The notes under the pieces are model-generated. The model worked only from the letters and a program-made list of their open reading frames with translations. It had not been told where the DNA came from and made no database searches. Below, piece after piece: positions 7,779 to 63,380 of a stretch of DNA of 64,000 bases. The DNA is from Geodia barretti. Its lineage: Eukaryota. Made by a program: the position numbers and the translations under genes. How positions within the stretch are numbered: position 1 is the first letter of the stretch; the number at the start of each line of letters is the position of its first letter. Where the stretch lies: NCBI GenBank assembly GCA_030341885.1, contig CASHTH010004028.1:18733-82732 (forward strand), in the 5' to 3' direction.

Positions 7779-10700
7779 ATGGCCACTGAAGGACTGCCGC
7801 CGGACAGAGTCCCGCCAGAGCTGCGCAGGCAGACGCTCTGCCTCAACTTGTGAGTACACTTTAATTGATGCCCACCCCGTTTGCGAAGTTTCAAATCTGA
7901 GCGCGCGCTTGGCGAAGCATCGTGCTTGGTTATGGAATTTAGGTACCAACTTGTGTTGCCTCTCGACTGGCGGAGATTGTTTTCACTGGCCCCATTAAAC
8001 ACCTGATCCTTTTAGTGACGATAAACTAAACCGAAACGCCAATATTCGCTCGCTCAGATAAGGGAATTGATATAGAGCCTTTCTCTGTATAATGCCTGAA
8101 AAACTGTTTTTGCAGGGGGGACTAGTGTGTCAAATAAGTGTGAGGACAACAACATGGGGCGGGTTCGATCGGGGGTGGTGTTGTACGAGTTTTGTGGCCG
8201 TCGGCGCGCCGCGTGGGTGTGTAGTTACACTCTGCGCATGCGCACAAACAGTGCAAGGGCTTAAAAAGTTCACCGCTAATTGATCGGTCGCGCGATTAGT
8301 CTTTGCACGAGCGAGAGTCTCTGTGCTTGTCTGTCCTCTGCAGGGAGGAGGCGATCCGGAACTACCCCGGTACCCCGGATCCACGCCGGGAGCCTACAGA
8401 ACCCCACGGACGTGGAGATAATCTTCTTCGACCAGTCGAGAAACTCGTAATGGCCGTTCTCTCTCCGGGAGCTAACACTTGAAGCAACATGCAGCAGCTA
8501 GCTAAGACGCGCGCGATTCTGGGTGTATAATAAAAGAGCTAGGTGTGGCGTTGTGAATTCATAGGACTACTAAAACGGCTTATCTTGCACAGCGCTCCTT
8601 GTGCCTTGCTGCAGAAGCGCCTGTCGTGCAATGTAACAGTGAGAATTCTCAGGCTGTGAAGGCGTTTCTGTTCGCCACGTCGTCTGTGAATGTGCGTGTG
8701 TGAGAGTATAACATGCTGGTGTATAATTGGCAAGTAACCGAAATTACTGAGAGAGGAGCTCCATTTTTTTCAGTGACCCTTCATGCATCTGCATATATCA
8801 CAGATCATAGGATAATGCTTGCTATAATTATAGTAACCAGAGAGCAGGTATGTAGGACAGTTTCTTTTGCAATCAGTCTGCAAGATTGACAGTGCAATCA
8901 GTTGCTATCAATATCTGAACATTATTGTTCTGTACTCTGCGACTAGTGTGTGAATGTACTACCGACACACACACACACACCACACGGACACACCAGATGT
9001 ACACAGTACGATGATCAGAGGAGAGGTAGAAGGTAGCTGAATGTCGTAATTATCGGTCATTGCTTCGAGTCAGCTACATCATACAATGCAGTGTTTCTCT
9101 ATTAGTGCTAGCCACCTCATTTATATTCAGCAAACACTTCAGCCTCTCCAGCTATGTATATACTCCTTTGCCGGTGCCACACTAGTTTCTGGCGTATGTA
9201 CTCTTTGGGGCACATATTACGTGCGTATGCGTTGCATATTAGTCCACGTAAGTTGACCTCGTCTTTGGACGCGTTTTTTAAGTAGTGCTTTAGCGTGTAT
9301 ACATTCTGTATAAAGACATTACTCTGAAGGAAGTGGCGCGCCCACTGGTTAACGGCGCGCGTAGTGCAGCAGCAGAGTGCCATGACCTTCATACGTGTCA
9401 CATGACATCACTGTTGTATACAAATTGCCATACACGCATAGGTGCTGCTGTAGCTCTCTCGCTACATAACTACCACATACTATATACTACGTACTATGTT
9501 CACACGGTCTAGGTGTTTGCTTGCCTTGCTGCCTTGCGCCTCAGGATGACTGGCAATACATACACGGCCAGCTGCAGCGAATTCTCTTTATGCTAACAAC
9601 AGAGAAAGAGCCTCAGATTAGATACATTAACCTTAGTTTCTCCCGTCCAAAGTTCCCCAATTTTCTTTGGCCAGCCACAAAGCAGTGTGTTACCTTAATA
9701 TCTCGCACCTCCTGATGTTGTGGGCGCTGTATAGGTTTCCTGGAGCACATAAACCTTAGTTTCCGCTCCAAAGTCCCCCCAATTTTCTTGGGCCAGTCCA
9801 CAGAGTAGTGTTGTGTTGGTAGGCTATTATATCTTCGCACCTCTTGATGGGGGCGGAGTCTGTCTAGGTTGCCTGGAAGGTGCCATGGTGTTCCTGTGAG
9901 ATATCTGCCAGGGTATATGTGTACATGCAACTCAGTGGACATGCTAAAACTTTGTTCTGGCAGATTTTTCACGGAGTGCTGCTTTCTCCACATTTTAGAT
10001 ATTCTTTGTGTCTTCTGCTTTTTTGAAGTGTGATCGTTTTGCACTTCGAAAAGCGGCGTAAAATGCTACTGTTGATGGCAATGTACTGTATGTGTTTCTG
10101 CAGAAGAAAAGTGGAACGAGAGAGAGGAGGTTGTTTTGGCTGAGTGATACCGAAAGTTGATTGCATTTAGTGACCTCCTTAGGACAGTGAAAAGGGTATC
10201 TTTCATGTGGGGGTACACCCTATACCTAACGAGTAAGCCTTAGACCCTGAACTGTGGCAGATGTGTGTATATAGTGCATGCTGTTGGCAGTGCGTAGCTG
10301 GTGATCTGGTGAGGCCCCTGCGGTAGTGGGTTACTATCGTCGGGTCAAAGTTCAGTTGGTTTTTCCAAGTGGTGGTGGTGTGGATGGTTGCATGGGTGGT
10401 TGGGTTTGCTGTCAGACCACATTTTGCGCTGTGCTTCCTTGCCTGCATGGGTGCACCTGCCATTTTCTCCCTCGTCTTTGCCTCTCTCTACTTTGTATTA
10501 TACTTTCTCCCTCGCTCATCCTCTGCTTCTCCTATCCCCTTTCTCCTCTTCCCGTGCCCATTCACTCACTCTCCATCCTCACTCACTATCTTCGTTCCAT
10601 CCTCCTCCTTCTTCTCCACCACCACCACCAACAGACCTAGCAGCTCAGAACCCGCAGCAGCAACACCAGCAGTCAAATCAATCGCTCCCTCAGTCGTCTA

Positions 10701-43232: not shown

Positions 43233-43920
43233 CGACCCAGCATTGTGCATACGACGACACGTGGGTTTCAGCTTACCTGGCCCCGCCCCATAATCTGTCC
43301 CCGCCCCCTTGTCGCTTGTATCCACGCCCACCGGAAGTACAAGGAGGGCGTATCAGGGGCGGTTTATGCGCAAGCGCGTACACGAAGTCTGCTACCGACC
43401 GCGCGACCGACCGACCGACCGACCGACCGCCCGACCGCCCGCCGTTACGTTGCTGTGTCATCCCTACTCGTCTGTACTGTCGGGCAGTAATCTGCAGTGG
43501 AGAACTCTTGGTTTCAACTCCTGGACTTGAGAAATATCTTCTGTTGTTGGTGAGAACTTGCAACATCTGTTTTTCCCATCCTACACGTTGCTAGCTACAA
43601 CCACCCGCGAAATCAGGAAATCGCGTTGTGCAGGCACGCGAACGCATAGTCTCGCTAGCCAGACTCCCCCGAGAGAGTCTGGCTAGCGAGAATACCTCCC
43701 GCATGCCGTAAAATTCGCCCCCTAATCCTGCACGACGGGAGCACATAGTATCTCCTCCCCACACGATGAGCTATGCTCTGAGTCATTCAACCGTGCAACG
43801 CCAGGCAGAACACCTCCGAAATATGCCTGACCTCCTCCCCTTTCTTCTTTCTCTCTTTCTTCCTCTCTCTCTCTCTCTTTCTGTGACTCTGTGGGCTAGC
43901 AAGTGGAGAACTCAGCCAGC
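43233..43920. promoter_or_regulatory. Bidirectional promoter between GTF2H3 (minus) and MVP (plus), right arm; carries a (CGAC)n expansion at 43386-43432 that is absent from the left arm, and a copy of the 17-bp-stem hairpin at about 43661-43705
   Basis: Divergent ATGs at 43232 and 43921. GC boxes present. Mirror of 1328-1977. Confidence 0.5.
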
Positions 43921-46900
43921 ATGGACAGATCAAAGAAAGACGAGGGGAAGAGCATCTACCGCATCCCTCCCTACTACTACATACATGTCCTGGACCAGAA
44001 CAGCAACGTGACCAAGTTGGTGGTGGGACCACACACCTTCATCAGACAAGACAACGAGAAGGTATAATATAGCTACATCTGAACAAGCGAGATCGAGATA
44101 GTTGAACATGTAGCTGAGAGAGAGGGAAAGAGAGTGCAGGTGTATGTTCCCAGGCCTTCCGTTACATTGAGCGTCATTTGTTTGTAATATTGTGGGTAAA
44201 TATATACACGTTCCCTTTAGTGACTGCGAGTAATGCTAAACCACATTCCCCAGTACAGAACCACACATTTTCAGGATTATACTGCATCCCATATGCACGC
44301 CATACACTGTGGAGCAGTAATAGCATTCACAGACCTCTGCACACGAGCCCTCCCACTCTGTAGAGGGTAAAGTTGATACATGAGCTGCTGTGTTGCGTCT
44401 GGAGGATGAATCTGGTTTTGTTGGGCATTACCCATGACGAGGGTTCGGATAGCTCTGTAAGGGCAGTTAGCAAAGGTCATCACTCACTGATGAGTTCCTA
44501 TCATTGTGTGTGTATATTGCTCATGCCAAGATATGCAACGAGGCATGCCATAACCATATGTACATGCCTACTAGCTCTGATCTGTACGTACATTATTTTG
44601 CTCACTTAAAGCGCTGGTTCGCAATACTCTGCTGTGCTGTCGCATTTTATGGCTTTTCAAGTTGTCGTACCTGCTGAAAATCCTGGCAAGTCACGCCGAG
44701 CGCATTATCACGAAATTGAAAACCTGTTTGTCATAAACTAATCACTTTCACATAACTTCCGCGGAGTTTTATGAAATGGGGACGGTGCCTATTGTTACAT
44801 CTATGCTGCCACATAATGCTATCGCGACCACATTCAAAACTGAAAACACTCTGTAATTTTGCCAAACTAAGATGGACTATTCAGGTATGCAGTGTAGTAT
44901 ACATTTTCTGAGTGTGTGTTGTTCCCCATCTCGCAGGTGATAGTTGCGACCAGAGAAGATGATATGTGGTTCCCCGAGGCAACGACTGCGTGGTGGAGGA
45001 ACCGGCCATGAAGACAAGGACGGCGAACGCGATTGTTCGATACACACGGACAGGTAAGATTCACCCCCATTCACTGGCGACGAGGTCTGCTCATTGAGCC
45101 ATTGTACAGTAGGACCTGAGCTGTAGGTTAATGGTGGATGTAGAGCGTCACATGGAGGTACGTGTTCCTGCTGTGTATGGGTCAGGGCTGTCTGAATAGG
45201 CTAATAGCCCTCCGTTCCGTCATGCATGAAGAAGCGTTCAGTTCTAGGTGCACCACGGTGTGAATAATGTACACGCTGGTCCATATGTGAAAAGATTTTA
45301 AAAACGGAGATAATGTGTGAAAACGATAACTTGAGCGTATGTGAAAGATTTCGATTGGCAGACGGGAATCGCTCCATCTCTGAACATTAACACAGCGAGT
45401 TTGTGTATACATTCTCAACCTCAAGCGCCTCCCTGTACATTGGCGATCACATGGATCTATTGTACATCTATATGATAATAGATACACTTCTCCCTCTCCA
45501 GATAAAGCTGCGCCACGCAGATCAGGAGATACGGGTGGCACAGGACCGTTTCCTCTCTTCCCGGGAGAGGTCCTGAAGCAGATAGTCACCCAGCTGAAGG
45601 TGGTCCCGGCCAACACTGCACTGCGCCTGCGAGCCGTCCTCGACTTTGTGGAGGAAGGAGGGTCCAAGAGGACAGCTGGGGACGAGTGGCTGTTTGAGGG
45701 CCCAGGTTAGCTCTCACCCACTCTCTGGTGGAGGACTATTATGTTGCCGGAGCCTGTGACCTGACACAGTGTGATGTAGCATGAATTAGAGGGTATCGGG
45801 CAATGCAAGTGTGTGTGAAATCAACAAGCTGGGAGTTCTATAGTTGTGACAGGCTAGCTTCACAAGCTGGGAGCTCTATAGTTGTGACAAGCTAGCTCAC
45901 TGTGGCTTTACTTCCTGCGTTTACAGACCACATCATTTTCATGCATTTTGGTGTGGGTATAATTAAAATACCAGCTTCCCTTCAGCCGCTGCTGTGTCAT
46001 TGTTAGAAGACTTCCCCAAATTTTACCATGCCAACTCATGCTGCTGTGACTATTTTTAGAATGCCCCGTTCTTACATCACTGTATCTACTATTTACATAT
46101 AATGTTTCTGCATATCCTCTGTACAATAATTATGTGTAGTGTGAAACCAATATAGAAAGTGTGCTGGTTTGTGAAGTGTCCTTATTTCGGGGTGTGTTTA
46201 TTAGCAGGGTTTCCCCACTCTGTAGGGACCTACATTCCATACAAGGAGGTGGTTGTCGAGGAGACGATCAGGGCCACAGTCATCAAACCAAACCAGGCCA
46301 TTAAACTGAGGGCCCGCAAGGAGACTCTGGTACACTTCACGAACAGCTATATACCTCTTTCCTCTCTCTTCCAGTATTTCCCTTCTCAAATATTCCCTGC
46401 CGGTTAATGATGAATTTTTCAACTCTCCTCGTTTTCCGTTTTCAACTGCCTTATAACCCTTTCTGTCCTTATTCCACTTGCTATCTCTGCCCCTCTCTCT
46501 CCTCCTCCTCCTGTTCCACTTCTCCTTGTCAGGATCGAGACGGGAACCCCAGAGTGACGGGAGAAGAGTGGCTGGTCAAGAAGATTGGGGCCTACCTTCC
46601 TGGAGCCTATGAGGAGGTGGTGGAGCTGGTGGATGCCTATGTCCTCACTGAGAAGGTCAGTCAGTCACTTAGTAAGTGATCCACTGTGTTTGATACGTAT
46701 ATAAGTCAGGCCAGCTATGCTAAAGTTCTGAAGTTTAGTTGGAGACATTGAACTGGGCAGAGTTCCCTCAGTGTTTCTTTACTGCAACAGTTGGAGTGTG
46801 GTGCAAATTGCTCATACTGCTCAACAAAATCTTAGCAGAGCGAGTTGTTTTTTTTCGTGATGTGGTGCTGAATGTATATATAGGCATGATGGTATGTGGT

Positions 46901-49251
46901 GCTGAATGTATAGGCATGCTTGTGTGGTGTAGGTTGCCCTGCACATGAGAGCCACGCGGACCTTCACCGACCGCAATGGAGTCACCCACAGGAACGGAGA
47001 GGAATGGCTCATCAAGATGGAGGACACTGAGGCACACATTCCTGATGTCTACGAAGAGGTGGCTACTTCTCTCTCTTCTTTCTTCTTTCATCCCCTTTGT
47101 CACCATTCTTATGTGCCCTCCTCCCAACCATGTTACACTGTACCCTCCTCCCCACCATGTTACACTGTACCCTCCTCCCCACCATGTTACACTGTACCCT
47201 CCTCCCAACCATGTTACACTGTACCCTCCTCCCCATACAGGTAGTAGGTGTGACCAACATCACCACACTGACCAACCGGCAGTATTGCGTCATCCTGGAC
47301 CCTGTAGGCAGCGACGGGAAACCCCAGCTGGGCCAGAGGAAGCTGGTGAAGGGAGAGAAGTCGTTCTTCCTGGAGCCCGGCGAGAGACTGGAGAAGGGAA
47401 TTCAGAATGTCTATGTTCTAGGGGAGGATGAGGGGCTCATTATGAAGGCCATTGAGGAGCATACCGACCCTGACACTGTGAGCTAGGCACAGAGGGAACA
47501 ATAGTTAATTGCCTGCATTCCAGGCACATGCTCCACTTCCTGCACCAAGCGAGTCCACCTACTCATCTCAATTGCGCAGTTTTCTATAACTATTGGTGCC
47601 CTCAATGCTTTACATATTTGTAAATCCACGAAATTTCGCACTCCTGTTTTCTCTCAGAAGTGGGTTGCTATATTGCTAACAGCTGCAATTCGAGCCATGC
47701 TTTGCATTCATAATCAGCCCTGCCAGGCCCTGGCTCTGCACAGTTATATCTCCCTTCTCTTCCTCTCTCATTGGATAAACTATTATCTCTCTCTCCTTCT
47801 TTCCAGGGAGCGTCTCGCCAGCCGGGCGATCGCTGGATGATCAGAGGGCCCCAGGAGTACGTCCCCTCGGTAGAGGTTGAGGTGGTCACCAAGCAAAAGG
47901 CCATTCCTCTCGACGAAAACGAAGGAATATACGCCAGGGACATCAAGACTGGAAAGGTACATCAAACTTTTGTGAGATGTGAAGTTTTGGAACGACATCA
48001 TTACCCTCGGAAGTAATCAAGTAGAGGCAGGCCAAGTGTATAACTATCCTTTATCAGAGGGTCCTTTTCAGAGGTTTCACTGTCGTACATGTTCTGTATA
48101 CTACATGTGCCTGAAGTGGGGAGTTTGTTACTCAATATGGTAAGACAGACAGACACAAGCAAATCTTAACTATTTGTGAGGCTCTGGGTGCAAGTTGCTA
48201 AAGTCACTCATTCTCTACGTGACAGGTGAGGTCTGTGTGTGGTTCGACGTACATGCTGACCCAGGACGAGGAACTGTGGGAGAAGCATCTTCCACCGGCC
48301 GTTGAAGATCTCCTCTCTCAGGCCAAAGACCCCCTCGCTGACCGCTCCGATAGATGTGAGCGAGAGGGAGGGGGAAGGGAGGGAGAAGAAACCTTTGACT
48401 GACAGTTTGAAACCCTTTTCAAAGGGCACTCCTGAAATGAGGACAACTCTCCAATAAGGGGGACACCTTTTTCCCAAAGAACAGTTAATTTTTTGCATGA
48501 ATTTCTGAATAAGGGCCCCTCTCTAATAATGAATACTTTGGTGTCCAGATACGAAGGGCTGCACTGTTGACGTACACGGCTAACTGTAACCACTAGCAAC
48601 CTTAGTTCCTTACTCTACCACTTGACTGTCCCCACAACACAGCTCGGGCAGTAGTCTCTACAAAGAGAGACAAAACGAGGGTCATCACCTTCCGAGTCCC
48701 GCACAACGCCGCCGTGCAGATCTACGACTACAAACAGAAGACGGCACGTGTCATGTTCGGGCCCGACCTCGTCATGCTGGAGCCGGACGAGCAGTTCACT
48801 CAGCTGTCTCTCTCCGGCGGGAAACCCAAGAGGCCCAATGTCATCAAGGCCCTCTGCCTCCTCTTGGGGCCCGACTTCTGTACCGACATCATCACCATTG
48901 AGACCTCGGACCACGCCAGACTCTCTCTGCAACTGTCCTACAACTGGTGAGTGGAGGGAGATACCGCTTTGAATCCAACTATGTGTGCTTGGCTATGTCC
49001 ATACACTCGACCTCAGCACAACATGGCCCTAGAATTAATAACCATAGCTCTAGAGCGTTAGAGCATTGCTTTTCACTTTTCATTTCCAGGCATTTTGAGG
49101 TGGCAGACAAGGGGAGCGAGAAGGAGGCGTCCAAGATTTTCTCGGTGCCAGACTTTGTCGGTGACGCCTGCAAAGCCATTGCCTCTAGGATCAGAGGAGC
49201 TGTGGCTGGGGTCCAGTTTGACGACTTTCACAAGGTATAATATAGGAAGTG

Positions 49252-49291
<40 letters not shown>

Positions 49292-51330
49292 TCAATAATA
49301 AGGCATGACCTGGTGTGCCTTATGGATAGGTGTCCTTAATTGGAAGAGTCCTTTTTCGGAGGTTTGACTCATGAATAAGTCTGTATATATATATATCTGC
49401 TGGCTAACTCTCTAATTCTCTCTCCTCCTACCCTCCGCACAGAACTCGGCAAAGATCATTCGTGCCTCTGTTTTTGGTATAGACGATAAGGGAAAGGTCC
49501 GCGATCGCTTCGCCTTCCCTGCCAACTGCCTCGTGATAACCAGCATCGACATCCAGTCGGCAGAGCCAGTCGATCAGAGGACTAGGGATGCTCTGCAGAA
49601 GTCAGTGCAATTGGCCATTGAGATCACAACCAACTCCCAGGAGGCCACTGCCAGGTGTGCGCGGCGCGCGTGTGTGTGTGTGTGTGTGTGTGTGTATTCA
49701 AAAGTTTGTTCAAAGTATACAGTTGTGTATGTGTGTATGTACTGTATTACGTCCAACCGTCACACAATTTACGAATAATAAGTGCACACTACCTATGTAC
49801 GTGTAAACTACCAGTCTTTGAATTCTGAAAAAACACGTGTAAGAACAAAACCTAGGGAAAAGAAAACCCATCTTCATCCTTGGAACACAAAAACTGACAC
49901 CCACTACAATAGAGAAGGAAAGAGAGATGTGTAGCTACACATGTAGATGATACTATGGAGGGAGAGAGACTGTAGCTATACATGTGAATAATATGCTACT
50001 CCATACATTCCAGACACGAGGCAGAGAGGCTGGAGCAGAAGGCCAAGGGAGCTCTGGAGCGACAGAAGATCACGGACGAGGCTGAGGCAGAAAGAGCACG
50101 CAAGGAGCTCCTGGAGCTGCAGGCCAACAGTGCGGCAGTTGAGTCGACGGGACAGGCCAAGGCTGAGGCCCAGTCACGAGCAGAGGCTGCCAAGATCGAG
50201 GGACAGGCTGCAGTAGAACAGGCCAAACTGAAGGCCCAAGCCAGCAAGATTGAGGCGGTAGGTACAGTGAAACCTCGGAATCAGTTCCAACTTAGAGACG
50301 TTGAAATTTGCATGGGCTATATCAGTATTATGATAAGAGTTTAGGCTGGGTATGTTGCATCGCCCCATCGCACTGTGCTGCATCACGTTGTGCTGCGGAG
50401 ATTAGAAACTATCCTCTCGGTGCAGCAAAGCTGCAAGGCGCGACAGGGCAATGCGATGTGTATTGTGACCCCAGCCTTATTCGTGCGACTACTACCACTA
50501 ATTGTTGTATAATATTACTCTCACAGGAATCAGAGCTGGAGAGGTTGTCGGGTGCGCGGGAGGCAGAGACAAAGTTTGTAAGGGAGCAGAACGACCTCGA
50601 GATTGCCAAGGCCAGGGACATGGCGACCATCGAGACACATAAATTCAAGGACATGGTCGATGCCATTGGCTCGCAGACCATTCAGGCTATTGCCACTGCC
50701 GGCCCTGAGATGCAGGTATTTAACAGTACACGAGTATACATACACCTCAACCTTCCTCTACAACTACCCTACTTCACTCTTGCCTGACGTACGTACATAC
50801 AATAGCTATTGAGAACTGTTGTACATTGTCCGCCTGATCACACGGAAAACTATACTTACCCACGAATGTGCTGATCATGTGGTGGTCTATTTAGCCCAGA
50901 TAGTTAGACGTAGCACCATGTACAAAGGTCCAAAGTGTATAAAGATCATTATGCTCAGTGAAAATGTTAGTGATTTAGCAACCAACTACTGAGTAAGGGT
51001 CCAAAATGTATGTGAGGGGGCATGGGAAAAGGGACCTATATGGCTGGAATGTGAAAATTAAGTTTTTGTGGTTAACATTTTCACATTCCAGCCATATAGG
51101 TCCCTTTTCCCATGCCCCCTCACATTATGTATACTTTCGCGCAATATCTTCGGGAAGCTGTGTTTTCACTCAGGGTTGCCGTTCTTTCACAGGTGAAGCT
51201 GCTAAAGAGTCTGGGGCTCAAGTCCACTCTGATAACAGACGGATCAAGTCCCATTAACCTCTTCAACACCGCCCACGGGCTTATCGGAGCTCTCGAGGCC
51301 CCGCCCCCTGCCAATCCTTCCACCTCCTGA
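43921..51330 (+). CDS. MVP: Major vault protein, 15 exons; exons 1-2 lie inside the palindrome arm and exons 3-15 in unique sequence; exon 2 of this copy contains a stop codon and multiple indels; exon 3 lacks one C
   Basis: Exons 43921-44061, 44937-45053, 45502-45705, 46226-46329, 46533-46655, 46933-47058, 47241-47477, 47807-47956, 48226-48355, 48643-48946, 49090-49234, 49443-49654, 50014-50257, 50527-50715, 51193-51330. Collinear with vertebrate MVP from [16 protein letters not shown] through the vault repeats (TGEEWLV.., [119 protein letters not shown]), the coiled-coil cap helix, and the C-terminal [27 protein letters not shown]. Confidence 0.88.
47117..47232. repeat. 29-bp minisatellite, 4 copies (ccatgttacactgtaccctcctccc[c/a]a[c/a]), in MVP intron 6
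   Basis: Direct reading. It generates the repeated [11 protein letters not shown] artefacts. Confidence 0.9.
49253..49289. repeat. (GT)n microsatellite in MVP intron 11; a second (GT)n lies at 49671-49696 in intron 12
   Basis: Direct reading. Confidence 0.95.
51011..51124. repeat. Perfect 48-bp-stem, 18-nt-loop hairpin inverted repeat in MVP intron 14 (MITE-like or foldback element, or hairpin RNA precursor)
   Basis: Left arm 51011-51058 is tgtgagggggcatgggaaaagggacctatatggctggaatgtgaaaat. The exact reverse complement lies at 51077-51124. The loop is 51059-51076. Confidence 0.8.
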
Positions 51331-51569
51331 GTTCCTACATGGCTATAATACACAGATAGCTTAGCTGCAGTCTGGTGGACAGTGGGAACAATAGTAGCAG
51401 ATTTTAGACTTACTTAGTTTTTTGAACTCTTGTGAATTTTTCTTACACGTTGTATGCCACCGTGTGTACTACTGTGTGGGAAAATTTTGATTTGATATCT
51501 GCAGCAATAGTGCAAAAACGGATAAAAAATTCTGAGTTGAAATCAAGTTGAGGCTCCAATGAGGATAAA

Positions 51570-52283
51570 TCAAACTGTTTGACATCGAAAGTTCTTCTCC
51601 GCCATCTGTGCTAGTGTTCTGTTCTCTTCCATCTTCCGCGCTATTTTTCTGGTTCGCGTGGCCAGCTGAGGTCTCCCGTACCTGTAAATGTCATTCATCG
51701 AGCAACGTTTCCTGACACCAGCATGTATGGCTCCGTCCATTGCTCTAGGTGCGTAGTCTATGGCCCGAGTATTATTTTCAGACAGTCCCACTATTACTTG
51801 AATGGGTCGACAGACTAGCCTTGTGTACCCCATTATTAATCTAACACACATCCTGACAATATAACCATGGATCATTATAAGCACTGGCACGGAGAGCAAT
51901 ATAGATGGAGGCTCTCATATATCTGTGGTGGAACTTACCCCCCAGTCCATGTTGCCACTCTTCACACAGAGGGCTTTGACTCTAGTGAGAGCTCCCTCTC
52001 CTCCACTGAGAATATTTGAGGAACGATGTCTGAAATCAGCCGGCCACACTTCCCCGCCGTCGCTCCCGACGCGGACCGTAGTGGGTTCACTGTCGAGAGA
52101 AGAGGAGGTCTTCAGAATGGGGAGTTTCGGTGTTTGATCGCGATGGGGTACGGCTACTGGGTGTGTCGTGGGTGCAGAGTGCATGTGGGTGAGGACAGGA
52201 TGTGCGAGGGACGGCTTTGTGAATCTGAGGTCTGCCTTTCTCGCTCTCGGCTTCTCTGGTTGGTCCGTTTCCGGAGCATCCAA
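51570..52283 (-). other. Two adjacent minus-strand ORFs (51915-52283 and 51570-51899) of unknown identity, possibly a terminal exon or a transposon-derived fragment
   Basis: ORF track only. The region is GC-rich. The proteins (MDAPETDQPEKPRARK.. and ..IDYAPRAMDGAIHAGVRKRCSMNDIYRYGRPQ..) were not recognised. Confidence 0.2.
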
Positions 52284-53369
52284 CCGGTCTGCTATACACA
52301 GATGTAACAGTCAACATAATATAATTATAATAATTTATATATACTACTATTGCTCATGTATATAATATATATATATATATTGCTTATTACATTTCCTTAT
52401 GGAAATACACAGAAAAAACATACTATAAAAACTACTTCAGATGCTACACAGATGTCCTTGGCAGCATAATGCACGGATAAACCATATTGTTAGAAAGGAA
52501 GCTCGATAGTATATCACACGCCTCATGGGTAAAGATTACTATTCCTCAGGAGTTTACTAGTTACCTCGTGAAAAGTGAAACCTACCGCTGTGTGTGTTGT
52601 ACCACTTCTGGTCGTGAGCAAGAGCAACTGAAGACAGGAAGCCAAGGCAGTCTTCACTGTCCAAGTCACTCTCTCCTATTATCATACAGAAACAAACTTT
52701 AAGAAACAAACAACTATGAGAGGTTGTTTATCAGCAGCAAAGGTAAGACTTTCCCCGACAGGTTTTGCTTACCTTCTGCTTCAAAACTGTAGCTACTGTC
52801 CAGCCTGGTACTGTTGTGTGTGTGTGTATAAATATTGTGTAATGAAAACGAAAGGGTTGCAATAAAGCTGCTAACGTTTCTATTTGTATGTCTCGGAGAC
52901 GGGGAACAAAGAAGATCAGTACAGAAGTCCTGCCAACATCTCCAACTTCCTTTCCCTTTACACCTGCCAGCAATGCCTACACAAAAGGGGGAAATAGTTA
53001 TTTCTACAGGCACCTGAGACACTTTTAAACTTCATTGCACTGTGTCAGATCACACACTTAATAACATACTTACACCAGTGCTTGTGAAATAATAGCCGAT
53101 GGTAAAAAGGACTGGATTGTGGTTGGACCTACTGTATCGTGTGAAGTCTCACTTTGCAAAATGAATCGACCAACTTGTATCGATGGTACAGTGACTCAGT
53201 AGAGCTGAGTTGACCCAACACTGCCAGAAGATGATCCGATACTATTACATAAAGCAGAGAGCAAAGTGAAAAATATTAATTTGCTTATTGTAAACGTACA
53301 TGGAAGTTCCGGAGTTCTTGTTTTTTGTACCCCTAATTCCCTTAATCTTGCCTATACATTGTAGAGAAC

Positions 53370-54780
53370 AACAAAAACACATTAGTAGTCAAAATCTGTT
53401 CTTCGACTCTTTGCTGTACACACCTGCAGTGTGAAGAAATCGAGGTAATTTCGGTAGATTTCAAAGCTACTTCCATTTGACCAACTGACATGAACGGCAA
53501 AATCCTGTAAATGGAGGAAAGTAATCGATATCCTGCACAAAATACACTCCTTACGTTCATGTTTTGTTGTTCCCTAAAGCCAACCACACCGGCTCCTGTC
53601 AGATCATGCTCTCCGATGTTTGGAGAGCTGTTTAACAACAACAACAACAATAAAATTATCTTGAGTGGGACATTCAGAGTTTACTCAACGGGATCACCCA
53701 CCAACCATCAACAGTATGTCCAAAAACAGAAATTGGCCATTGGAGCCAATATTACCCCGCTTAAATAAGAGTTATGTACACTTATCACAAACTTATAAGG
53801 CAACCCCATTCTGAGGGCTTAATAAGCATTGCACTCTCCAGCTATAGGGAATGCATTCAGAATCATTGCTTGGCCTGTCCTTCCTCCTATGTCCTTAGGC
53901 TGTCAATTGTTAAGGTGAGAAGGAGATGTTAGTTGTGCAGCTTTTAAACTACCTGGAGGTAGGTATTGAGGTGTTACTGCTGGAGATAGTGTACTGTCGA
54001 AGTCTGCCCAACAGCTTATTGTGCTCCAGTAGTACATCTGCTAAGTCACTTGTAGTGAATAACTGAGGTTTCAGAATACTCCCTTCATTATGAGCTTCAT
54101 CATTCCCCACTTCTCTCCCAGCTTCATTCTCCCCATTCAGGAGACCTGCTGCTTCCTCTGTGAATCCTTCAGAGGCATTCGGTAGATGATGGCTCTATTG
54201 AGGGGAGGGATGAGGGAAATACAGTCACACTCACAAGCTCTCTGTGTGTCACATGCTGCAAGGTGGTTAATCGTTGCTGATGTAATACACAACACAATAC
54301 ACTGCCAGATTAGTAACTTACTACACAGTCGACTAGACTCTATAGTACGAGCTAGACTATAGTAGCTACCATGCCAAAGTGAAAATAACAAGAAAATAAC
54401 TTGCATAGAATTGCGTAGGGTAAGCTCACTGTTGCTTTGCTGTGGGTGAGGGAAATGTCGGGGACTGTCTTGAGCTTTGGAAACGCAGCACCAACTTCCG
54501 TGACAGCTCTGAAAACCTGTCGGATTATAGATCTCACATTACAATACAGAGTTGCACGAATACTGCGCACCTTCTCTTGTTCTTTATTCCTGAGAAAGAC
54601 GAATGAACCTCTAAAAGCACCTCGCAAACGTTCGTTTTCGGCCTTCAGCGCCTAGACGGCCGACGGTAAACATCGTGTATAGCTAGCTAGAAATTCCGTT
54701 AGCTTGCTACATACTTGTGCGTAGTCCAGAAGCGTCCGCACATCGCTTCTCAGGTCTTTCAACTGCTGCGCCACAGACAT
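53370..54780 (-). CDS. Uncharacterised multi-exon gene on the minus strand; exon 1 is 54715-54780 (MSVAQQLKDLRSDVRTLLDYAQ), an exon at about 53952-54196 and one at about 53370-53510 with a PX-domain-like motif (SFEIYRNYLDFFTLQ); 3' extent unknown
   Basis: ATG with a downstream GTATGT donor, and AG/GT-bounded ORF segments. Exon phases could not be fully reconciled. Confidence 0.3.
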
Positions 54781-55002
54781 ACTGATCAGGATTTTCCTGC
54801 CCAATCGCACAAGGAGAATTAGTCACCGGCTCTCGATTGACCGTCATCGATCCGGGCCGTCGCCAATTCCGCATACGCATGCGCAGCTGGGCGGGGCTCA
54901 ATCTAAGGGTGTAGCTGAGTGCAACACACGGGGACACAGGATTTGCTGTGCTGATTTCGAGAGCTGGCCGCCGCTACAGCTGGGATATCGTGGCTCCGAA
55001 GG
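54781..55002. promoter_or_regulatory. Bidirectional promoter between the minus-strand unknown gene and NUDT9; NRF-1-like CGCATGCGCA at 54876-54885, a CCAAT-like box and a GC box
   Basis: Divergent ATGs at 54780 and 55003. The sequence ccgcatacgcatgcgcagctgggcgggg is present. Confidence 0.45.
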
Positions 55003-56960
55003 ATGGCGACTACTTTCACCACTCACAGGCAGCCCCTGGAGTACCTGGGCGGCGTCCGGCGGTTCCCCGTGCCGGAAGACAAGACCCCCTGGTCCGTGGA
55101 CTACCCCGGATACCACCCCGTGGACTACACGGCACCTCGCGTCCTCTCCCGTCCCGTTTGGGCAGACCCCGACATCAGGTCTCTAATGAGGCATAGCAGT
55201 CAATCATTTTTGTTACAATTAGGAGCAAAACAACCACATCCCACATTTGTTTTTCCTCAAAATCTGTTGTATTCACACAAGCTCTGTGTATATTTGCAGG
55301 AAGGAGGAGGAGCCGGAAAAACCGCTGCAGTTCAACTCATTGGACGGTAAAGTGGACAGAAAGAGTCACATGGGCACCTACCAGATAATGGACAAAGTTC
55401 CCAGGTATCACTACTACCACTTCATTTTGAGCCCAGGGGGCAAAATTTATGGGGGGAAATTGGCCCCTTGCCCCCCCCCCCCCACACCTCTCTAGAAGAA
55501 CTGTTCCCTACCTCTCTTCTCCCTCCCTCTCTGTCCCGTTGTGCCTGCAGGAACCCAGTGGGTCGGACAGGGATGATCGGGAGGGGTCTGCTCGGGAGGT
55601 GGGGACCCAATCATGCAGCTGACCCTGTCGTCACCAGGTGAGTTCACAAAAGATTTTAATACAACAAACTATTATCCAGGTGCATACACATGCAAGAATG
55701 AATAAAGCACAATCCTGTTTAGGAACTCACTTGGAAAGGAAATTTGAATAAAAACACTATACAGTAGTTGTTGGCCTGTTTACAGTGTCACTCTCTGTGC
55801 AGGTGGAAGAGAGATGGGAGTGGAGCTAGAGTGGAGAGAGAGGGAAAGCCAGTGTTGGAGTTTGTGGCTGTCAGAAGAGGAGACACTGGAGCCTGGGCCA
55901 TCCCTGGAGTAAGTTACACTACCACAAAATGATAGAGAAGGAGAGCTGTGTGTGAATTAGGGGCCCACAGCAAGTCAAGTGGGCTTTTGCATTGTTTTAT
56001 AGCGTTACATTTTGTAGTAAATTCGAATCTTTTCACTGCTGTATTTTCTTCGAATTTTGGGCCTAAATGTGTATCAGTTGATTTACCTTACAGTCTGAGC
56101 CCCTCCCTCCAGGGTATGGTGGAGGCAGGAGACACGGTGTCGGCCACACTCAAGAAGGAGTTTGGAGAAGAAGCGCTCAACTCCCTCGAGGCCACGGACG
56201 AGGAGAAGAGAAAGATTGAAGAGCACATCAACCACCTCTTCAAGTCTGGAGACAAGGCATGAATATATTACCTCAAGATGCCAGTTTGAGTGTATTAAGT
56301 CTGTGAATACGCTATTTTACTATTAAATTTTGCCTCCCCAATGTACGTAGTTGTATGCAGGGTATGTAGATGATCCTCGGAACACAGACAATGCCTGGAT
56401 GGAGACAGTTGTCTTTAACTTTCATGACGACTCAGGTCAGATATATATTATATCTACACAAACCAGTCATTACTGCACCCACTGCTGTTTACACAAGACG
56501 TGATTGATATTTGGGGACAGATTAATAAACATGCCCCATATCTCTGTTTTTGCTGATAAGCATGTAAGCTACAGTTTGATTATGTTCACATGCTGATAGT
56601 GCTATATACATATATATACTTTACTTAGCAATAGCAATCATTAAGGGAACGAAGGTCAATTTTTGTTCTGAGTTGTAACTCAATGCCGTCACTGATAATG
56701 CCTGAGTTCAATGACGACAGACAATCTCTCTCCCTGGCCTTTGTATATATGTAATGTACATTGGGGACTTATTGTGAGGTGTGGAAACACACACTACATA
56801 TGATGATGATGTAGGTGAGGGTTTCAGTAAGCTGAATCTGGTTGCCGGGGACGACGCGGCTGCCGTGGCGTGGACGGAGGTCCACTCTGGTCTCGGTCTC
56901 TACGCCAGCCACTCCCACTTCGTCCGCCTCGCTGTGGAGCACCGGAAAGCCGCCTGGTAG
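55003..56960 (+). CDS. NUDT9: ADP-ribose pyrophosphatase, mitochondrial-type Nudix hydrolase, 7 exons
   Basis: Exons 55003-55178, 55300-55404, 55551-55637, 55803-55908, 56113-56256, 56351-56435, 56815-56960. Conserved NUDT9 blocks: [115 protein letters not shown]. Intron 5 appears to begin with GC (AAG|gcatga). Confidence 0.8.
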
Positions 56961-57249: not shown

Positions 57250-58315
57250 GCTGGTTATCATACTGACAATATGTACCTTTCCACCAGTAGCCACCAGTAC
57301 CACGATGGATGGCATGAGTATACTGACAATATGTACACTTTCCACCAGTAGCCACCAGTACCATGATGGATGGCATGGGTATACTGACAATATGTACCTT
57401 TCCACCAGTAGCCACCAGTACATGATGGATGGCATGAGTATACTGACAATATGTACCTTTCCACCAGTAGCCACCAGTAGCCATGATGGATGGCATGGTT
57501 ATACTGACAATATGTACTTCTCCACAGTAGCCACCAGTACCATGATGGATGGCATGGGTATTACTGACAATATGTACCTTTCCACCAGTAGCCACCAGTA
57601 CCATGATGGATGGCATGAGTATAATGACAATATGTACCTTCCACCAGTAGCCACCACTACCATGTGGATTGGCATGGGTATACTGACAATATGTACCTTT
57701 CCACCAGTAGCCAACAAGTACCATGAGTGATGGCATGAGTATACTGACAATATGTACTTTCAACCAGTTAGCCACCAGTACCATGATGGATGGCACTGCG
57801 TGTATACTGACAATATGTACTGTCCACCAGTAGCCACCACAGTAGCCATGATGGATGGCATGGGTCTATACTGACAATATGTACCTTTCCACCAGTAGCA
57901 CAGTAGCCATGATGGATGGCATGGGTTATTTTTGTTTATAGCTGACCATATGCTACCTTTCACCACAGTAGCCACAGTAGCCATGATGGATGGCATGGGT
58001 TATACTGACACGATGTACCTTTCCACCAGTAGCACACCAGTACCATGATCGGATGGCATGAGTCTACTGACAATATGTACCTTCCACCAGTAGCCACCAG
58101 TACCATGATGGATGGCATGGGTATACTGACAATATGTCACCCTTTCACCAGTATGCACCAGTACCATGATGGATGGCATGAGTATACTGACCATATGTAC
58201 CTTTCACAGTTAGCACCAGTACCATGATGGATGGGCATGGGGTTCTACTGACATATGTACACTTCCACCGTTAGCCACCAGTACCATGATGGATGGCATG
58301 AGTATACTGCACAAA
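57250..58315. repeat. Tandem satellite, unit of about 61 bp (ccaccagtagccaccagtaccatgatggatggcatgagtatactgacaatatgtacctttc), about 18 degenerate copies
   Basis: The landmark tactgacaatatgtacc recurs every 60-63 bp. ORFs 57119-57730(+) and 57197-57796(-) are repeat artefacts. Confidence 0.9.
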
Positions 58316-58479
58316 ACATGGACCTTAAGGGTGTGTTTATAATTTTAAAAAATGTTCCTGGTCGTGCTTTAGTCCCTTTTGATCCCTATCAACAATAATT
58401 ACCCATTTCACACCGTATCCATCTGGAGAGAAAGATTCGTAAGATCATCACCAATACACACAACGTCGCAGTTGTGGTA

Positions 58480-61400
58480 CTACAACTTCAGTACTCTGTC
58501 TCTCCCACCACTTGCCACTCTCTCCCCGTCCGGACTCCATCCACTGCAAAGGACAAATACCTCCGACATCATCACGACATCATTGGCCAATCGACCAACA
58601 GGGAGGAGGTTATATACTCGTATGCATGTCGGGCAAGTCGGTGCGGTTGGAGGAGAGCGGGTCTGATGTGTCCCAGACTTGAGAGTGCTGTCGGAGCTCC
58701 CGCTGCAGACGAGTCGGCTGTCAGCTGACCACGAGATCTGATAGACTGCCACTAAGTGGCCTCGCAGACTGGCCACGTATCTAACAGTAATACGTACACC
58801 ATTAGAGAGACATTGAGCTGAGTTGCCCTGGTAGCTCAGTTGCTTTAGAGTGCTCGCCTAGACTGCAGAGTGTGGTGGGTTTCAATCCCACCCAGGGCAG
58901 CTCTTCTTCTTTTCTTTGAGCGTCCTGGGTGTAGTTGACTGTTTGCCTGACTTGCCTTTTTACCTCGTACCAAGTTTGTTGAGACATGCTAATCGAACCC
59001 ATGTGGTAATATAGGCTAGGCTTCAATCACTCACAATGAACTTCGTCTTACAAAAAAAGTGGCATCAGTGACAATTGCGGCTTTAGTTCAGAGTTGCAGT
59101 AGTTAAAGGGTAACAAGTAGTGTACGGTCAGTGGTATAACACCGCCACACTTGGTAACGCCGCTGGACAATGGACAATGTTGTTTTCTGCTTTCACAAGT
59201 GAAACGGGTGTACACATAGTCATCTGAATGCTGGATATCCATTTCACTGTCACGAATAGTGGAAATTTCACACTCTCACTTTCACTCGCCGAAAATGCTT
59301 TGCATTCCTTATAGTAATGCTCGGTTTATCTCACTTGCCGGTTCTCCCGTCCCATAGTTTGATGGACCTTGTCGAAGGAGGCACTGGCTATGAGTCTGGC
59401 ATTCGGTGAGAACAGCACTTGGGGATAGCTGCTGTCGTGACATGTGCATATTACACGTTTCGCGGTTAGGAGAGATTGCGATTTTGGCAGTGAATTCCTT
59501 TGAGTAAGGGACACCTAGGGACAACAAATGTTTCCTTTATTCAGAGGTGACCCTTATATTTGAGTAAGGGACACCTTGGGACACCAAATGTTTCCTTTAT
59601 TCAGAGGTGACCCTTATATTCGGTGGTTAAACTCTGAATAAGGGGCACCAAATGTTTCCTTTATTCAGAGGTGACCCTTATATTCGGTGGTTAAACTCTG
59701 ACATAAGAGAGACACCAATGTTTCCTTTATCAGAGGTGACCCTTATATTCGGTGGTTAAACTCTGAATAAGGGACACCAAATGTTTCCTTTATTCAGAGG
59801 TGACCCTTATATTTGGTGGTTAAACTCTGAATAAGGGACACCAAATGTTTCCTTTATTCAGAGGTGACCCTTATATTCGGTGGTTAAACTCTGAATAAGG
59901 GACACCAAATGTTTCCTTTATTCAGAGGTGACCCTTATATTTGGTGGTTAAACTCTGAATAAAATAAGGGACACCAATGTTCCTTATCAGAGGTGACCCT
60001 ATATCGGGAGTTATTGGTTTTTAAACTCTGAGTAAGGGACACCTTGGGGACATTGAAAGGTGGAGTGTGGGGCAGAACCATGTGTCCTGGCTATATAGAC
60101 CTGTAGTACATTCTCTCATACCGGTCATCCTGGCAATGTGTTTCTTGCTGTCTGCTGGGTTCCAGAGAAAGAGAGTGAAATCATCTGAACTCAGCTAAAC
60201 CAACACCGTCTATCCCCTCACTGCTCTGCTGCATGCACACACCACACACACACCGCCAAAACCTAGTTTGTCGATCTCTCACATCTAACAAACAAACTCA
60301 GTGAGAAAAACCACATGCACCACATGGGGAAGTGGGCGAGGGAGAAGGGCAAAAGGCACATAGCTAGAGATGTGACAGTGACAGAGATTGTGTATATTCA
60401 ACCCTCAAATGTGTATAGTCCGGACAGGCAGTGTGCGTGGATTCTATGGATTATGAACACATTACCTTAGTCGGCTCGTATCGAACAAGGGCCTTCTCTG
60501 GAGCTCGAAATCTGAAACTGAAAGAAAAAACCTCATTAAAATTAAAAACACACGTAGCAAACCACAGTTTTTGTAACCCTGAGAACTCATAGCTGCAGAA
60601 TACTACGGCCCATTTTCTGAGACTCCGTGTGGTGGCGGGCGGGGTCGGCGGGGTCAATAGGCAGCTGTTCTGAGAGAGTCGTCGTGGTGCTGGAGAGCCA
60701 TGTGTTGGGACAGTGACCGTGACTGGGAGACTGCGACAGGCAGACATCCATGCGCGTGTGAACGAGTATGAGGCAGAGTCAGGAAAGTAAGAGGTACGGA
60801 GAGAGGAGATTTATGTTTTCTCCGATTTTATGCGTCGCTGTGTCCAGGTGCATGTGAATATCGAGCCCTAATTCTGTCTTCTGTTTATCTATACTGTAGA
60901 AGTAGACATTAAGTAAACAGGACGAATAACCACGCGACATGGAAATGAGAAGAGAGTCAGGCAACATAATATATAATATATGATACAGACTTTAAGTACT
61001 TTCTAAACTAACGTAGTGTACGTATATACACACAAACTCACATCTTTTGTCCTCCACACTTTGATGGTCCTATCTTGTGAAGCCGTGTAGACGAGTCCCT
61101 CCCCACCCATTTAATGCCCGTCACAGACTGGGTGTGGCCAGAGAGGACCATCACCGCCTTACACAGCACCACGTCCCATATCCTCACTGTCGCATCCTGT
61201 CATGGCAACAACAATCACATGATGGTCATGTGATCTAAAATTGCTCACAGCAAGTATTACGTTACCTTTGAGGCACTGGCCAGCAGTCTACAAGATGGAT
61301 CCCTGGAAGATTGAGCAACATGAGCCATATTATAGTACAAGCCAAATAATCTGCTATGTGAACTTGCAGCACAACGCTATTCACATTGCAAATGCTATAT

Positions 61401-63380
61401 ATGTACCGTCTTCGGTCTCCATTAGAACTTCAAGTTGTGGTTGGTCTGTTTTGGTCAATGCATAGCTGTCTGTGCCCTGTCAGCACTAATGTATCCAACA
61501 CCCTCCCAATGCAATGCTCTACTAGTCTGTCCGTGCCCTGTCAGCACTAATGTATCCAACACCCTCCCAATGCAATGCTCTACTAGTCTGTCCATGCCCT
61601 GTCAGCACTAATGTATCCAACACCCTCCCAATGCAATGCTCTACTAGTCTGTCTGTGCCCTGTCAGCACTAATGTAAAGCAGGCATACTCCAACACTCAA
61701 TGCTCTACTAGTCTGTCCGTGCCCTGTCAGCACTAATGTAAAGCAGGCATACTCCAACACTCAATGCTCTACTAGTCTGTCCGTGCCCTGTCAGCACTAA
61801 TGTAAAGCAGGCATACTCCAACACTCAATGCTCTACTAGTCTGTCCGTGCCCTGTCAGCACTAATGTAAAGCAGGCATACTCCAACACTCTCCCAATGCA
61901 ATGCTCTACTACCCAGTGAGGTATATAATAGACTCACAAATGAAGGGGCTGCCAGGCGAGAGAGGTGATCCACTGTTTGTGACCAGAGAGAGTGTGTCCC
62001 ACCTGTCTCCCTGTCTCTGCCTCCCACACACACACCTGAAGACACACACACACAAAAAACATTTTCACAGAGACTAAATTTGGAGATTGTCCATATAATC
62101 GCCACCCACAAAAATTTAATATTAGGATTACCGTACACACACATGTAAAAAAAATTTTTTAAAACAAGTGCTTGCGAAAAACGTTATGGAAACCTAGTAA
62201 GGCTGGTGGGCTATTGGCAAAGGGCATGCGGTGATATTTGGCGAAAATTCTACTAGTTATACGATCAATATATATACAACCTCACCACATCTACTGAAGA
62301 TGGGAAACCGACCTGTCCATTCTTGCAGCCAGAGGCCAGTCTCTTCCCGTCCGGCGACCACGCAATGCACAGTATCCAGTGTTTGTGGGCCTTGCAGGTG
62401 TGCAGTGGGGTCTCGGTGAATATGTCCCACAGTCTCACCGTTGTGTCTCCAGACCCACTGGCAAGAGACCTGGGGACAAACTCTCTCTCTATTTCTCTTC
62501 CACTCCTTTCTCTGCCCCCTTTATATTATATACACCACTCCCTCCCTCTCTTCGTCTTTTGATTCCTCCCATTCCTCCTAGTCTCTCCCTCCCCATTCAG
62601 CTCTCCATCCCCCATACCATACACAGGAGAATTATATTTGTGGAGATTGATGATGTCACTATAACCTCACTTACCGTCCATCAGGACTAAACTGAACAGC
62701 AATCACAGCCTCCGAATGACCTAAGAACACACAAAAGTCAGTACAACATCATTGAAAAAATTCAACCCACTGACTATATACCTCCAGTTCACTTCATTAT
62801 ACCTTTACACTAGAGACCACATGAGACCCCACTTCATAGGTATGATACTATCTATGCCTACCTGGTATGCTGCTGGTACAGTGGGTGATGGACTGGACTC
62901 TGAACCTGGCCTGAGGCTGGTAGACAATCTCCACCAACCTCTCCGTTCCTCCACTGCCCCTCTCCAACACCTCAGCCAGACTCTCCCGTACCTCCAGCTC
63001 GTGCACGTAGAACTCATACACCGTCTCATCATCCTAAAGGCGTCAATACACGTCGTGCAACATCAATGTATGGGTGTATGGTGGGGGTTCACGTGATGTG
63101 ACGACTCCACCCATAAATCGAATTGTTGCATGATGTATCACACAACACGGTAGTACCGTTAATGTTACCATCAGTCAACAGCTAGCGCCTCTTCGCCAAC
63201 GAGCAAACAAGAGCGAGCTAGTGAGTTTGTACGACTCACGTTCTCTAGGACGGCGGTGCACAGAGCCGCCAGGGAGTCTTTGGTGACACCCAGAGGCAGG
63301 TCGAACGGCGTGCCCACCAACACGCCGTCCTCGCTCTTGAACTGAGCCAAAACTCGCTTCTCATCCTCGCCCGCTTCCAT
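58480..63380 (-). CDS. NLE1: Notchless homolog 1 (NLE domain plus WD40 repeats), multi-exon; introns contain two satellite arrays
   Basis: Exon 1 is 63240-63380 (MEAGEDEKRVLAQFKSEDGVLVGTPFDLPLGVTKDSLAALCTAVLEN, the NLE domain). WD blocks include TGRQVGHTLSGHKQWITSLAWQPLH (about 61940-62010), QVLFSPNARLIASASFDK (about 59330-59400) and ASLRGHLVAVYQISWSADSRLVCSGSSDSTLK..WSPDGERVASGGRDRVLKL (58480-58776). Confidence 0.8.
58825..59059 (+). mobile_element. tRNA-derived SINE-like element with a conserved 3' block (CCTCGTACCAAGTTTGTTGAGACATGCT); partial copies of the 3' block lie in a MED15 intron at 12001-12060 (minus) and 33195-33248 (plus)
   Basis: The head has a 7-bp acceptor stem GCCCTGG/CCAGGGC, a D-arm TAGCTCAGTTG and a T-arm GGTGGGTTTCAATCCCACC, but the anticodon stem does not pair. 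An A-rich tail lies at 59051-59059. Confidence 0.55.
59501..60050. repeat. Tandem satellite, unit of about 64-70 bp (ggtggttaaactctgaataagggacaccaaatgtttcctttattcagaggtgacccttatattc), about 8 copies, each with an internal dyad (ctctgaataaggg / cctttattcagagg); lies in an NLE1 intron
   Basis: Direct reading. Confidence 0.9.
61465..61912. repeat. Tandem satellite, unit of about 60 bp (ctgtccgtgccctgtcagcactaatgta[tccaacaccctcccaatgca / aagcaggcatactccaacactca]atgctctactagt), about 7 copies in two subfamilies; lies in an NLE1 intron
   Basis: Direct reading. Confidence 0.9.

Follow-up and report, generated by a model that had tools for sequence, protein, structure and literature searches.

A perfect hairpin in the last intron of a Geodia barretti MVP gene is very probably one copy of a dispersed, palindromic MITE family

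Duplication of a TA target site is the hallmark of Tc1/mariner/pogo transposition, and it accompanies the Stowaway-like MITEs, which are mobilised by Tc1/mariner elements and occur both in plants and in animals. In Foldback (FB) transposons, which are of kilobase scale, the terminal inverted repeats (TIRs) consist of tandem subrepeats. In the human genome, Made1 is an old fossil family, the copies of which are flanked by TA. Made1 is 80 bp long and consists of two 37-bp TIRs on either side of a 6-bp centre; it derives from the mariner element Hsmar1 and is the source of mir-548 (PMC1784062).

Here a perfect inverted repeat within the last intron of an MVP gene is described, based on an analysis of the window (that is, of the whole 64,000-nucleotide stretch of Geodia barretti DNA, to which all coordinates refer unless a contig is named). 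This hairpin is very probably a copy of a dispersed, near-fully palindromic family of non-autonomous DNA transposons (a MITE family): the unit is short and non-coding, is bounded by TIRs, and recurs in multiple dispersed copies that have unrelated flanks. The features of the locus are listed in Table 1.

Table 1. Features of the hairpin locus and of the MVP intron and exons around it (window coordinates)
Feature	Coordinates	Strand	Description
MVP exon 14 (start approximate)	50527..50715	+	ends ...IATAGPEMQ
Host intron (intron 14, last of the MVP gene)	50716..51192	+	GT...AG, 477 nt
Left flanking TA	51009..51010	.	presumed target-site duplication
Element proper (very probable MITE copy)	51011..51124	.	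114 bp: two 48-nt TIRs and an 18-nt centre
Termini of the element	51011..51124		start TGTGAGGGGG, end CCCCCTCACA; identical termini at other loci
Left TIR	51011..51058	+	TGTGAGGGGGCATGGGAAAAGGGACCTATATGGCTGGAATGTGAAAAT; equals the consensus of 9 arms
Centre ('loop')	51059..51076	+	TAAGTTTTTGTGGTTAAC; from comparison with L013, L015 and L016
Right TIR	51077..51124	+	exact reverse complement of the left TIR
Right flanking TT	51125..51126	.	TA in other copies (L015, L014, P0145, P0151: CACA|TA)
MVP last coding exon	51193..51330	+	VKLLKSLGL...PSTS and stop codon

Repeat finding returned two reverse-complementary arms, at 51010-51058 and 51077-51125, each of which is 49 nt long; they have 0 mismatches and enclose an 18-nt spacer, TAAGTTTTTGTGGTTAAC. 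Positions 51010 to 51125 consist of ATGTGAGGGGGCATGGGAAAAGGGACCTATATGGCTGGAATGTGAAAAT, followed by TAAGTTTTTGTGGTTAAC and by ATGTGAGGGGGCATGGGAAAAGGGACCTATATGGCTGGAATGTGAAAAT in exact reverse complement. The outermost, 49th pair (A51010:T51125) lies outside the element proper and is supplied by the flanking TA and TT, because TA is self-complementary. An earlier note on this DNA had described perfect 48-nt arms and an 18-nt loop at 51011-51124, flanked by gTA and TTa; that description is borne out, inasmuch as the arms are complementary at 48/48 positions and constitute the element proper, the left flank being TA and the right flank TT. When the 64-kb window was searched allowing for 3 mismatches, these two arms only were found, and 0/100 dinucleotide-preserving shuffles gave a match. 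Folded as RNA, the segment 50990-51145 has an energy of -101.7 kcal/mol, versus -39.1 +/- 4.1 for shuffled sequences (z = -15.5); folded as DNA, the segment 51009-51126 has an energy of -61.9 kcal/mol (z = -18.8). Proneness to form a hairpin or cruciform is a physical consequence of the palindrome. No further copy was found within the 64-kb window, whether by the 3-mismatch search, by blastn with word size 7 or by nhmmer with an arm profile; hence the earlier statement that the element is single-copy in the window holds even when divergence is allowed for by the latter two methods. A 12-nt stretch at 50958 (GTGAAAATGTTA), which is complementary to 51073-84, was taken to be a chance match; it recurs at 62058.

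Searches with two MVP proteins (tblastn) place 15 coding exons of the MVP gene on the + strand of the window, from 43948 to 51330, and thus confirm that the hairpin lies within MVP intron 14, as the earlier note had proposed; the end of the element is ~66 nt upstream of the acceptor of that intron. In a collection of 5.8 billion proteins, the closest match to this MVP is a transcript contig (92% identity at the amino-acid level and 75-85% at the nucleotide level), and the closest named MVPs are those of Pinctada (a pearl oyster, 85%), Exaiptasia (a sea anemone, 85%) and Lingula (a brachiopod, 80%), vertebrate proteins being at most 72% identical. The 114-bp element itself is without coding capacity: the ORFs that cross the hairpin are spurious read-through only, and no exact record was found for either of the two window ORFs overlapping it. 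Repeats of another kind occur further along the window, where three tandem arrays (57260-58326, 59499-60043 and 61466-61911), with a period of ~60-61 bp and units that are 80-93% identical, sit within the introns of a Notchless-like WD40 gene that is encoded on the - strand.

The first 45 kb of the window contain a giant inverted duplication, the arms of which (4-21772 and 23323-45275) lie on either side of a 1.55-kb spacer centred at ~22550. These arms are 94.9-97.8% identical including gaps, and an XBP1-like bZIP gene and a Q-rich MED15-like gene are duplicated between them; because arm 1 is truncated at the edge of the window, the duplication is likely to reach across MVP. The first two MVP exons occur twice, head to head (199-324 and 1211-1285 on the - strand versus 43948-44070 and ~44930-45060 on the + strand), the second MVP copy being represented in the window by its 5' end only, which points off the left edge. 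MVP exon 2 is frameshifted by many 1-nt indels in the right-hand copy (to which the hairpin intron belongs) and is intact in the left-hand copy (VIVGPEKMIVVPPRHYCVVENPAMKDKDGKPVFDTHGQ); the broken exon looks like unpolished long-read error rather than a pseudogene. Most 1-kb bins of the duplication arms have 0.1-1.5% substitutions and few gaps; patches at 0-2, 4-5 and 9-10 kb, together with their partners within 26.7-45.3 kb, have 50-100 indel bases per kb, and there are 366 gap openings in 15 kb between the arms. This patchiness of the indels suggests a local failure of assembly polishing. Either the palindromic segmental duplication is real, or haplotypes have been falsely joined in inverted orientation, a possibility that the apparent long-read error in exon 2 raises. 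Each duplication arm also contains one copy of another small perfect hairpin (1546-1587 and 43650-43691), in which arms of 17 nt (TCTCGCTAGCCAGACTC) enclose a loop of 8 nt. Users of this assembly should check the 45-kb inverted duplication and the indel patches that corrupt MVP exon 2, which are more consequential than the hairpin.

Given an assembly that has an inverted duplication of 45 kb as well as patches full of 1-nt indels, the hairpin could be read as an assembly or sequencing artefact, arising in a noisy long-read assembly of which the giant inverted duplication is itself a suspicious feature. To this reading almost no probability is assigned, as the flanks of the hairpin are collinear with MVP exons 14 and 15, and as short-read assemblies made independently from other samples either include the very same hairpin or break off within it (L004, L005, L006, L010 and L012). 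These assemblies were retrieved by comparing the translated stop-free stretch 50305-50784 (exon 14 plus intron read-through) with a protein collection, which returned a cluster of 109-residue ORFs, with 97% amino-acid identity, on nine ENA metagenome contigs from nine samples. Compared with positions 45933-56217 of the window, the nine contigs are 97.6-99.6% identical including gaps; when only substitutions are counted, they are 0.16-0.9% divergent (99.1-99.8% identical) and fall into three haplotype groups. The nine contigs are host DNA of the same species, independently assembled from short reads. Contig L005 spans the hairpin without a single difference in 116 nt, the loop among them; four contigs end inside the palindrome, L004, L010 and L012 at window position 51063 and L006 at 51056; and the hairpin is found on all three haplotype groups. 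Because independent short-read contigs either contain it or stop inside it, the hairpin is not an artefact, and it is not confined to the reference individual.

Two further observations were made on these contigs. First, their ends at 51056 and 51063 (three at one base) are a practical case of perfect palindromes breaking de Bruijn assemblies. Second, (GT)n and (GC/GT)n microsatellites within the MVP introns (at ~49258-49295 and ~49670-49690) vary in length among the nine same-species contigs, and this variation makes up most of the apparent 1-2% 'divergence' between contigs.

The haplotypes also bear on the age of the insertion. With ~0.45% divergence per lineage since they split, ~0.4 substitutions are expected within the 96 arm bases, and therefore the perfection of the arms needs no special explanation. 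Where the earlier note had offered a 'recently inserted MITE', the MITE stands and 'recently' has to be qualified: the insertion is common to the three haplotype groups, which differ by 0.6-0.9%, and is thus no private, new insertion.

Other copies of the family were retrieved by joining the three reading frames of the element with X and comparing this query with the protein collection, which returned the L005 ORF and nine other spurious ORFs (P0144-P0152), all of them from ENA assemblies. When 1.84 billion representative proteins were searched exhaustively with HMMER, one further copy (P0154) and one unrelated repeat protein came to light. In the retrieved ORFs the translated arms (the right arm giving, for example, the peptide VPFPMPPH) are joined in varying frames, and the flanks are unrelated. 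The family is thereby present at at least 11 loci including the window: L013-L016, which were read as DNA, and P0145, P0146, P0147, P0151, P0152 and P0154, which are known as peptides only. The DNA of L013-L016 aligns to the window copy from TGTGAGG to CCTCACA and diverges beyond those ends. Both arms are present in L015, where they mismatch each other at 3 positions; in L013 (copy at 10171-10274) the centre is longer and the right arm truncated; L014 is internally deleted; and L016 retains no more than the left arm and the centre. The samples that yielded L015 and L016 also yielded the MVP-locus contigs L008 and L012, and the former two are therefore of the same species. Exact 20-mers of the arms had 0 (first) and 1 (second) matches among JGI metagenome contigs, 0 among viral contigs and 1 among prokaryotic genomes, these being collections that hold little animal DNA, so that the counts carry no information on copy number; the flanks of the two matches are themselves unmatched, and both were set aside as chance.

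The element is hence not unique; it was uniqueness, together with a lack of small RNAs, that the earlier note had named as the finding that would speak against a MITE. At least 10 other, unrelated loci carry the same arms with different flanks and with TA at the ends, in support of the MITE among the candidates that the note had listed. The same loci decide against a one-off local mutation, in which template switching or fold-back repair would have copied one arm from the other in place. A single event of this sort can make a perfect hairpin (PMC8794818, PMC10710096), and the window copy is single-copy in the window and without a clean target-site duplication; however, the same 48-nt arm and the same ends occur at at least 10 unrelated loci, which a local event cannot yield, and such an origin is accordingly considered highly improbable.

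Comparison of these copies with the very probable MITE copy in the window also indicates how its anatomy may have arisen. The consensus obtained from nine arms is TGTGAGGGGGCATGGGAAAAGGGACCTATATGGCTGGAATGTGAAAAT, to which both window arms are identical at 48/48 positions; arms that still match this consensus occur at different loci, namely the window, L014 and, with one substitution, L016. Other copies are off the consensus at 1-3 arm positions and have, in addition, differing central deletions or one-sided truncations. The perfection of the window arms is, in other words, that of a copy still identical to the family consensus, and not the outcome of any process that maintains them. Such divergence, together with the central deletions and truncations, is what would be expected of ageing transposon copies, and the variety of the central deletions would fit a hairpin-prone palindrome. 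In L013 the inverted repeat extends further inward (...TAAGTTTTTGAGG / GTGAAAAA / CCACAAAAACTTA...), and L015 and L016 have GTGGTTTTTCAC, which is the L013 loop in the opposite orientation. Because the L013 repeat continues inward and L015 and L016 share its loop, the ancestral full-length element probably had ~61-nt arms and an 8-nt loop. The '18-nt loop' of the window copy consists of the inner left arm, TAAGTTTTTGTGG (its first 13 nt), followed by TTAAC; on this reconstruction, the matching inner right arm, CC[A/T]CAAAAACTTA, is deleted in the window copy, leaving the '18-nt loop' behind.

The flanks were compared in the same way. In the window copy and in L013, L015 and L016, TA stands directly before TGTGAGG; judged by codons, a Y (TAY) precedes VRGHG in P0145, P0147 and P0152, and the MYMWGGHG of P0146 likewise places TA before the arm. 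On the other side, TA stands directly after CCTCACA in L014 and L015, and also in P0145 and P0151 (...CPLT-Y). TA is thus present at 8/8 scorable left ends and at 4 right ends (5 with P0146), the right ends that are not TA being those of the window (TT) and of P0147, and the sequences past the TA differ between loci. These flanks are consistent with TA target-site duplication, as judged from recurrence among loci in place of an empty site; alternatively, TA could belong to the repeat itself, as its outermost base pair. The right-hand TT of the window copy is presumed to be a target-site duplication with one substitution, or an imprecise one. Other duplications were considered as well and proved inconsistent across copies, so that TA was preferred; these were ATGTAT (51006-11 and 51127-32), ATGTA, an ATG lying outside the TA, and a 4-mer TATA duplication in L015. 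Some copies share additional likeness past the right end: TATAATTATAC occurs both in L015 (~580-600) and in the C-terminal flank of P0145, and ACAACGG occurs both in L014 (~10132-10150) and in L015. This shared sequence may reflect a larger repeat, a target preference or a slightly longer terminus of a subfamily.

The assignment of the family to Tc1/mariner is favoured, though with considerably less assurance than its identification as a MITE. To our knowledge, TGTG...CACA termini resemble neither those of Tc1 nor those of mariner, and neither an autonomous element nor a Tc1/mariner transposase with these termini was found in the ~150 kb comprising the window and ~85 kb of related loci. A Pfam scan of the long ORFs beside other copies yielded a hAT dimerisation fragment and SUI1 only, and no Tc1/mariner transposase. 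The hAT fragment is part of L013 (10931-11251), where the C-terminal dimerisation domain of hAT transposases (PF05699, E = 5e-11) was recognised in an ORF ~650 bp from the truncated copy; the truncation of that copy may be due to insertion of a hAT element. The family is probably uncatalogued so far.

We infer transposition as the mechanism of spread, as well as the superfamily and the neutrality of the insertion, and the history of this copy might be pictured as follows. A transposase encoded elsewhere would bind both of the identical 48-nt TIRs, as is typical of the class; the element, thus mobilised in trans, would be excised and pasted into a TA, which would be duplicated on both sides, in this case at a TA dinucleotide within the last MVP intron. 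There it would be transcribed with the intron and spliced out, most likely as a neutral passenger. As RNA, the element would form a perfect 49-bp duplex; as DNA, it would be a hairpin- and cruciform-prone site, which would account for the central deletions among copies and for the breaks in short-read contigs.

The RNA duplex raises the question of whether this MITE copy, or the family, might also be a small-RNA gene, the hairpin within the MVP pre-mRNA being diced into endo-siRNAs or a young miRNA. The hairpin is very stable and lies on the transcribed strand of an expressed gene, and Rfam miRNA models align with it end to end, although below threshold: the best score is 49.1 bits, versus gathering thresholds of 73-184 (Rfam 15; 49-53 kb, E<=1). 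Moreover, the matches fall on both strands and are to unrelated plant, herpesvirus and nematode miRNA models, and therefore reflect a generic hairpin signal, such that any perfect hairpin would score alike. A mismatch-free 49-bp stem is also unlike canonical animal pri-miRNAs, which counts against this reading. Conversion of a MITE into a miRNA is documented for Made1, which gave rise to hsa-mir-548 (PMC1784062); for the element described here, a small-RNA function is nevertheless judged unlikely. Similarly doubtful is the more elaborate proposal that the family is mobile now or was so very recently, given the consensus-matching arms of the window copy, L014 and (with one substitution) L016, and that the copy in the highly transcribed MVP intron yields a 49-bp dsRNA and, from it, siRNAs or a nascent miRNA acting in trans on other copies or on the transposase. 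If true, this would be an invertebrate counterpart of Made1/mir-548, caught at birth.

As a MITE copy, which remains by far the preferred interpretation, the striking perfect hairpin is accounted for without invoking function. The find is a further palindromic MITE family with TA flanks, here from an invertebrate, and has little biological significance past annotation; the locus does mark a break in short-read assemblies and is a candidate place in which to seek MITE-derived small RNAs in this species.

Compared with known systems, the element has several partial likenesses. Like Foldback transposons, it consists mostly of inverted repeats that enclose hardly any other sequence; membership of that group was ruled out, as the element is only 114 bp long and has neither direct repeats nor subrepeats inside. 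Like the hairpins and de novo miRNAs created by template switching, it has a perfect stem of the kind that can arise at a stroke in non-coding DNA (PMC8794818, PMC10710096); those cases, however, are confined to a single locus at which one arm is ancestral, whereas here the whole unit is repeated at unrelated loci. With Stowaway-like MITEs it shares being short, non-coding, bounded by TIRs, flanked by TA, capable of forming a hairpin and often located in or near genes; that group, in contrast, was defined in plants and has a conserved terminal motif, CTCCCTCC..., which is absent from the window family. The closest described analogue is Made1. Both are tiny and near-fully palindromic (2 x 37 bp + 6 bp in Made1, 2 x 48 bp + 18 bp here), and both are dispersed, multi-copy and often intronic, with a pre-miRNA-like hairpin when transcribed (PMC1784062). 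They differ in that there is no sequence relationship between them, in that the parent of Made1 (Hsmar1) is known and miRNA production has been shown for Made1, and in that the host here is an invertebrate, in which some copies are still identical to the family consensus.
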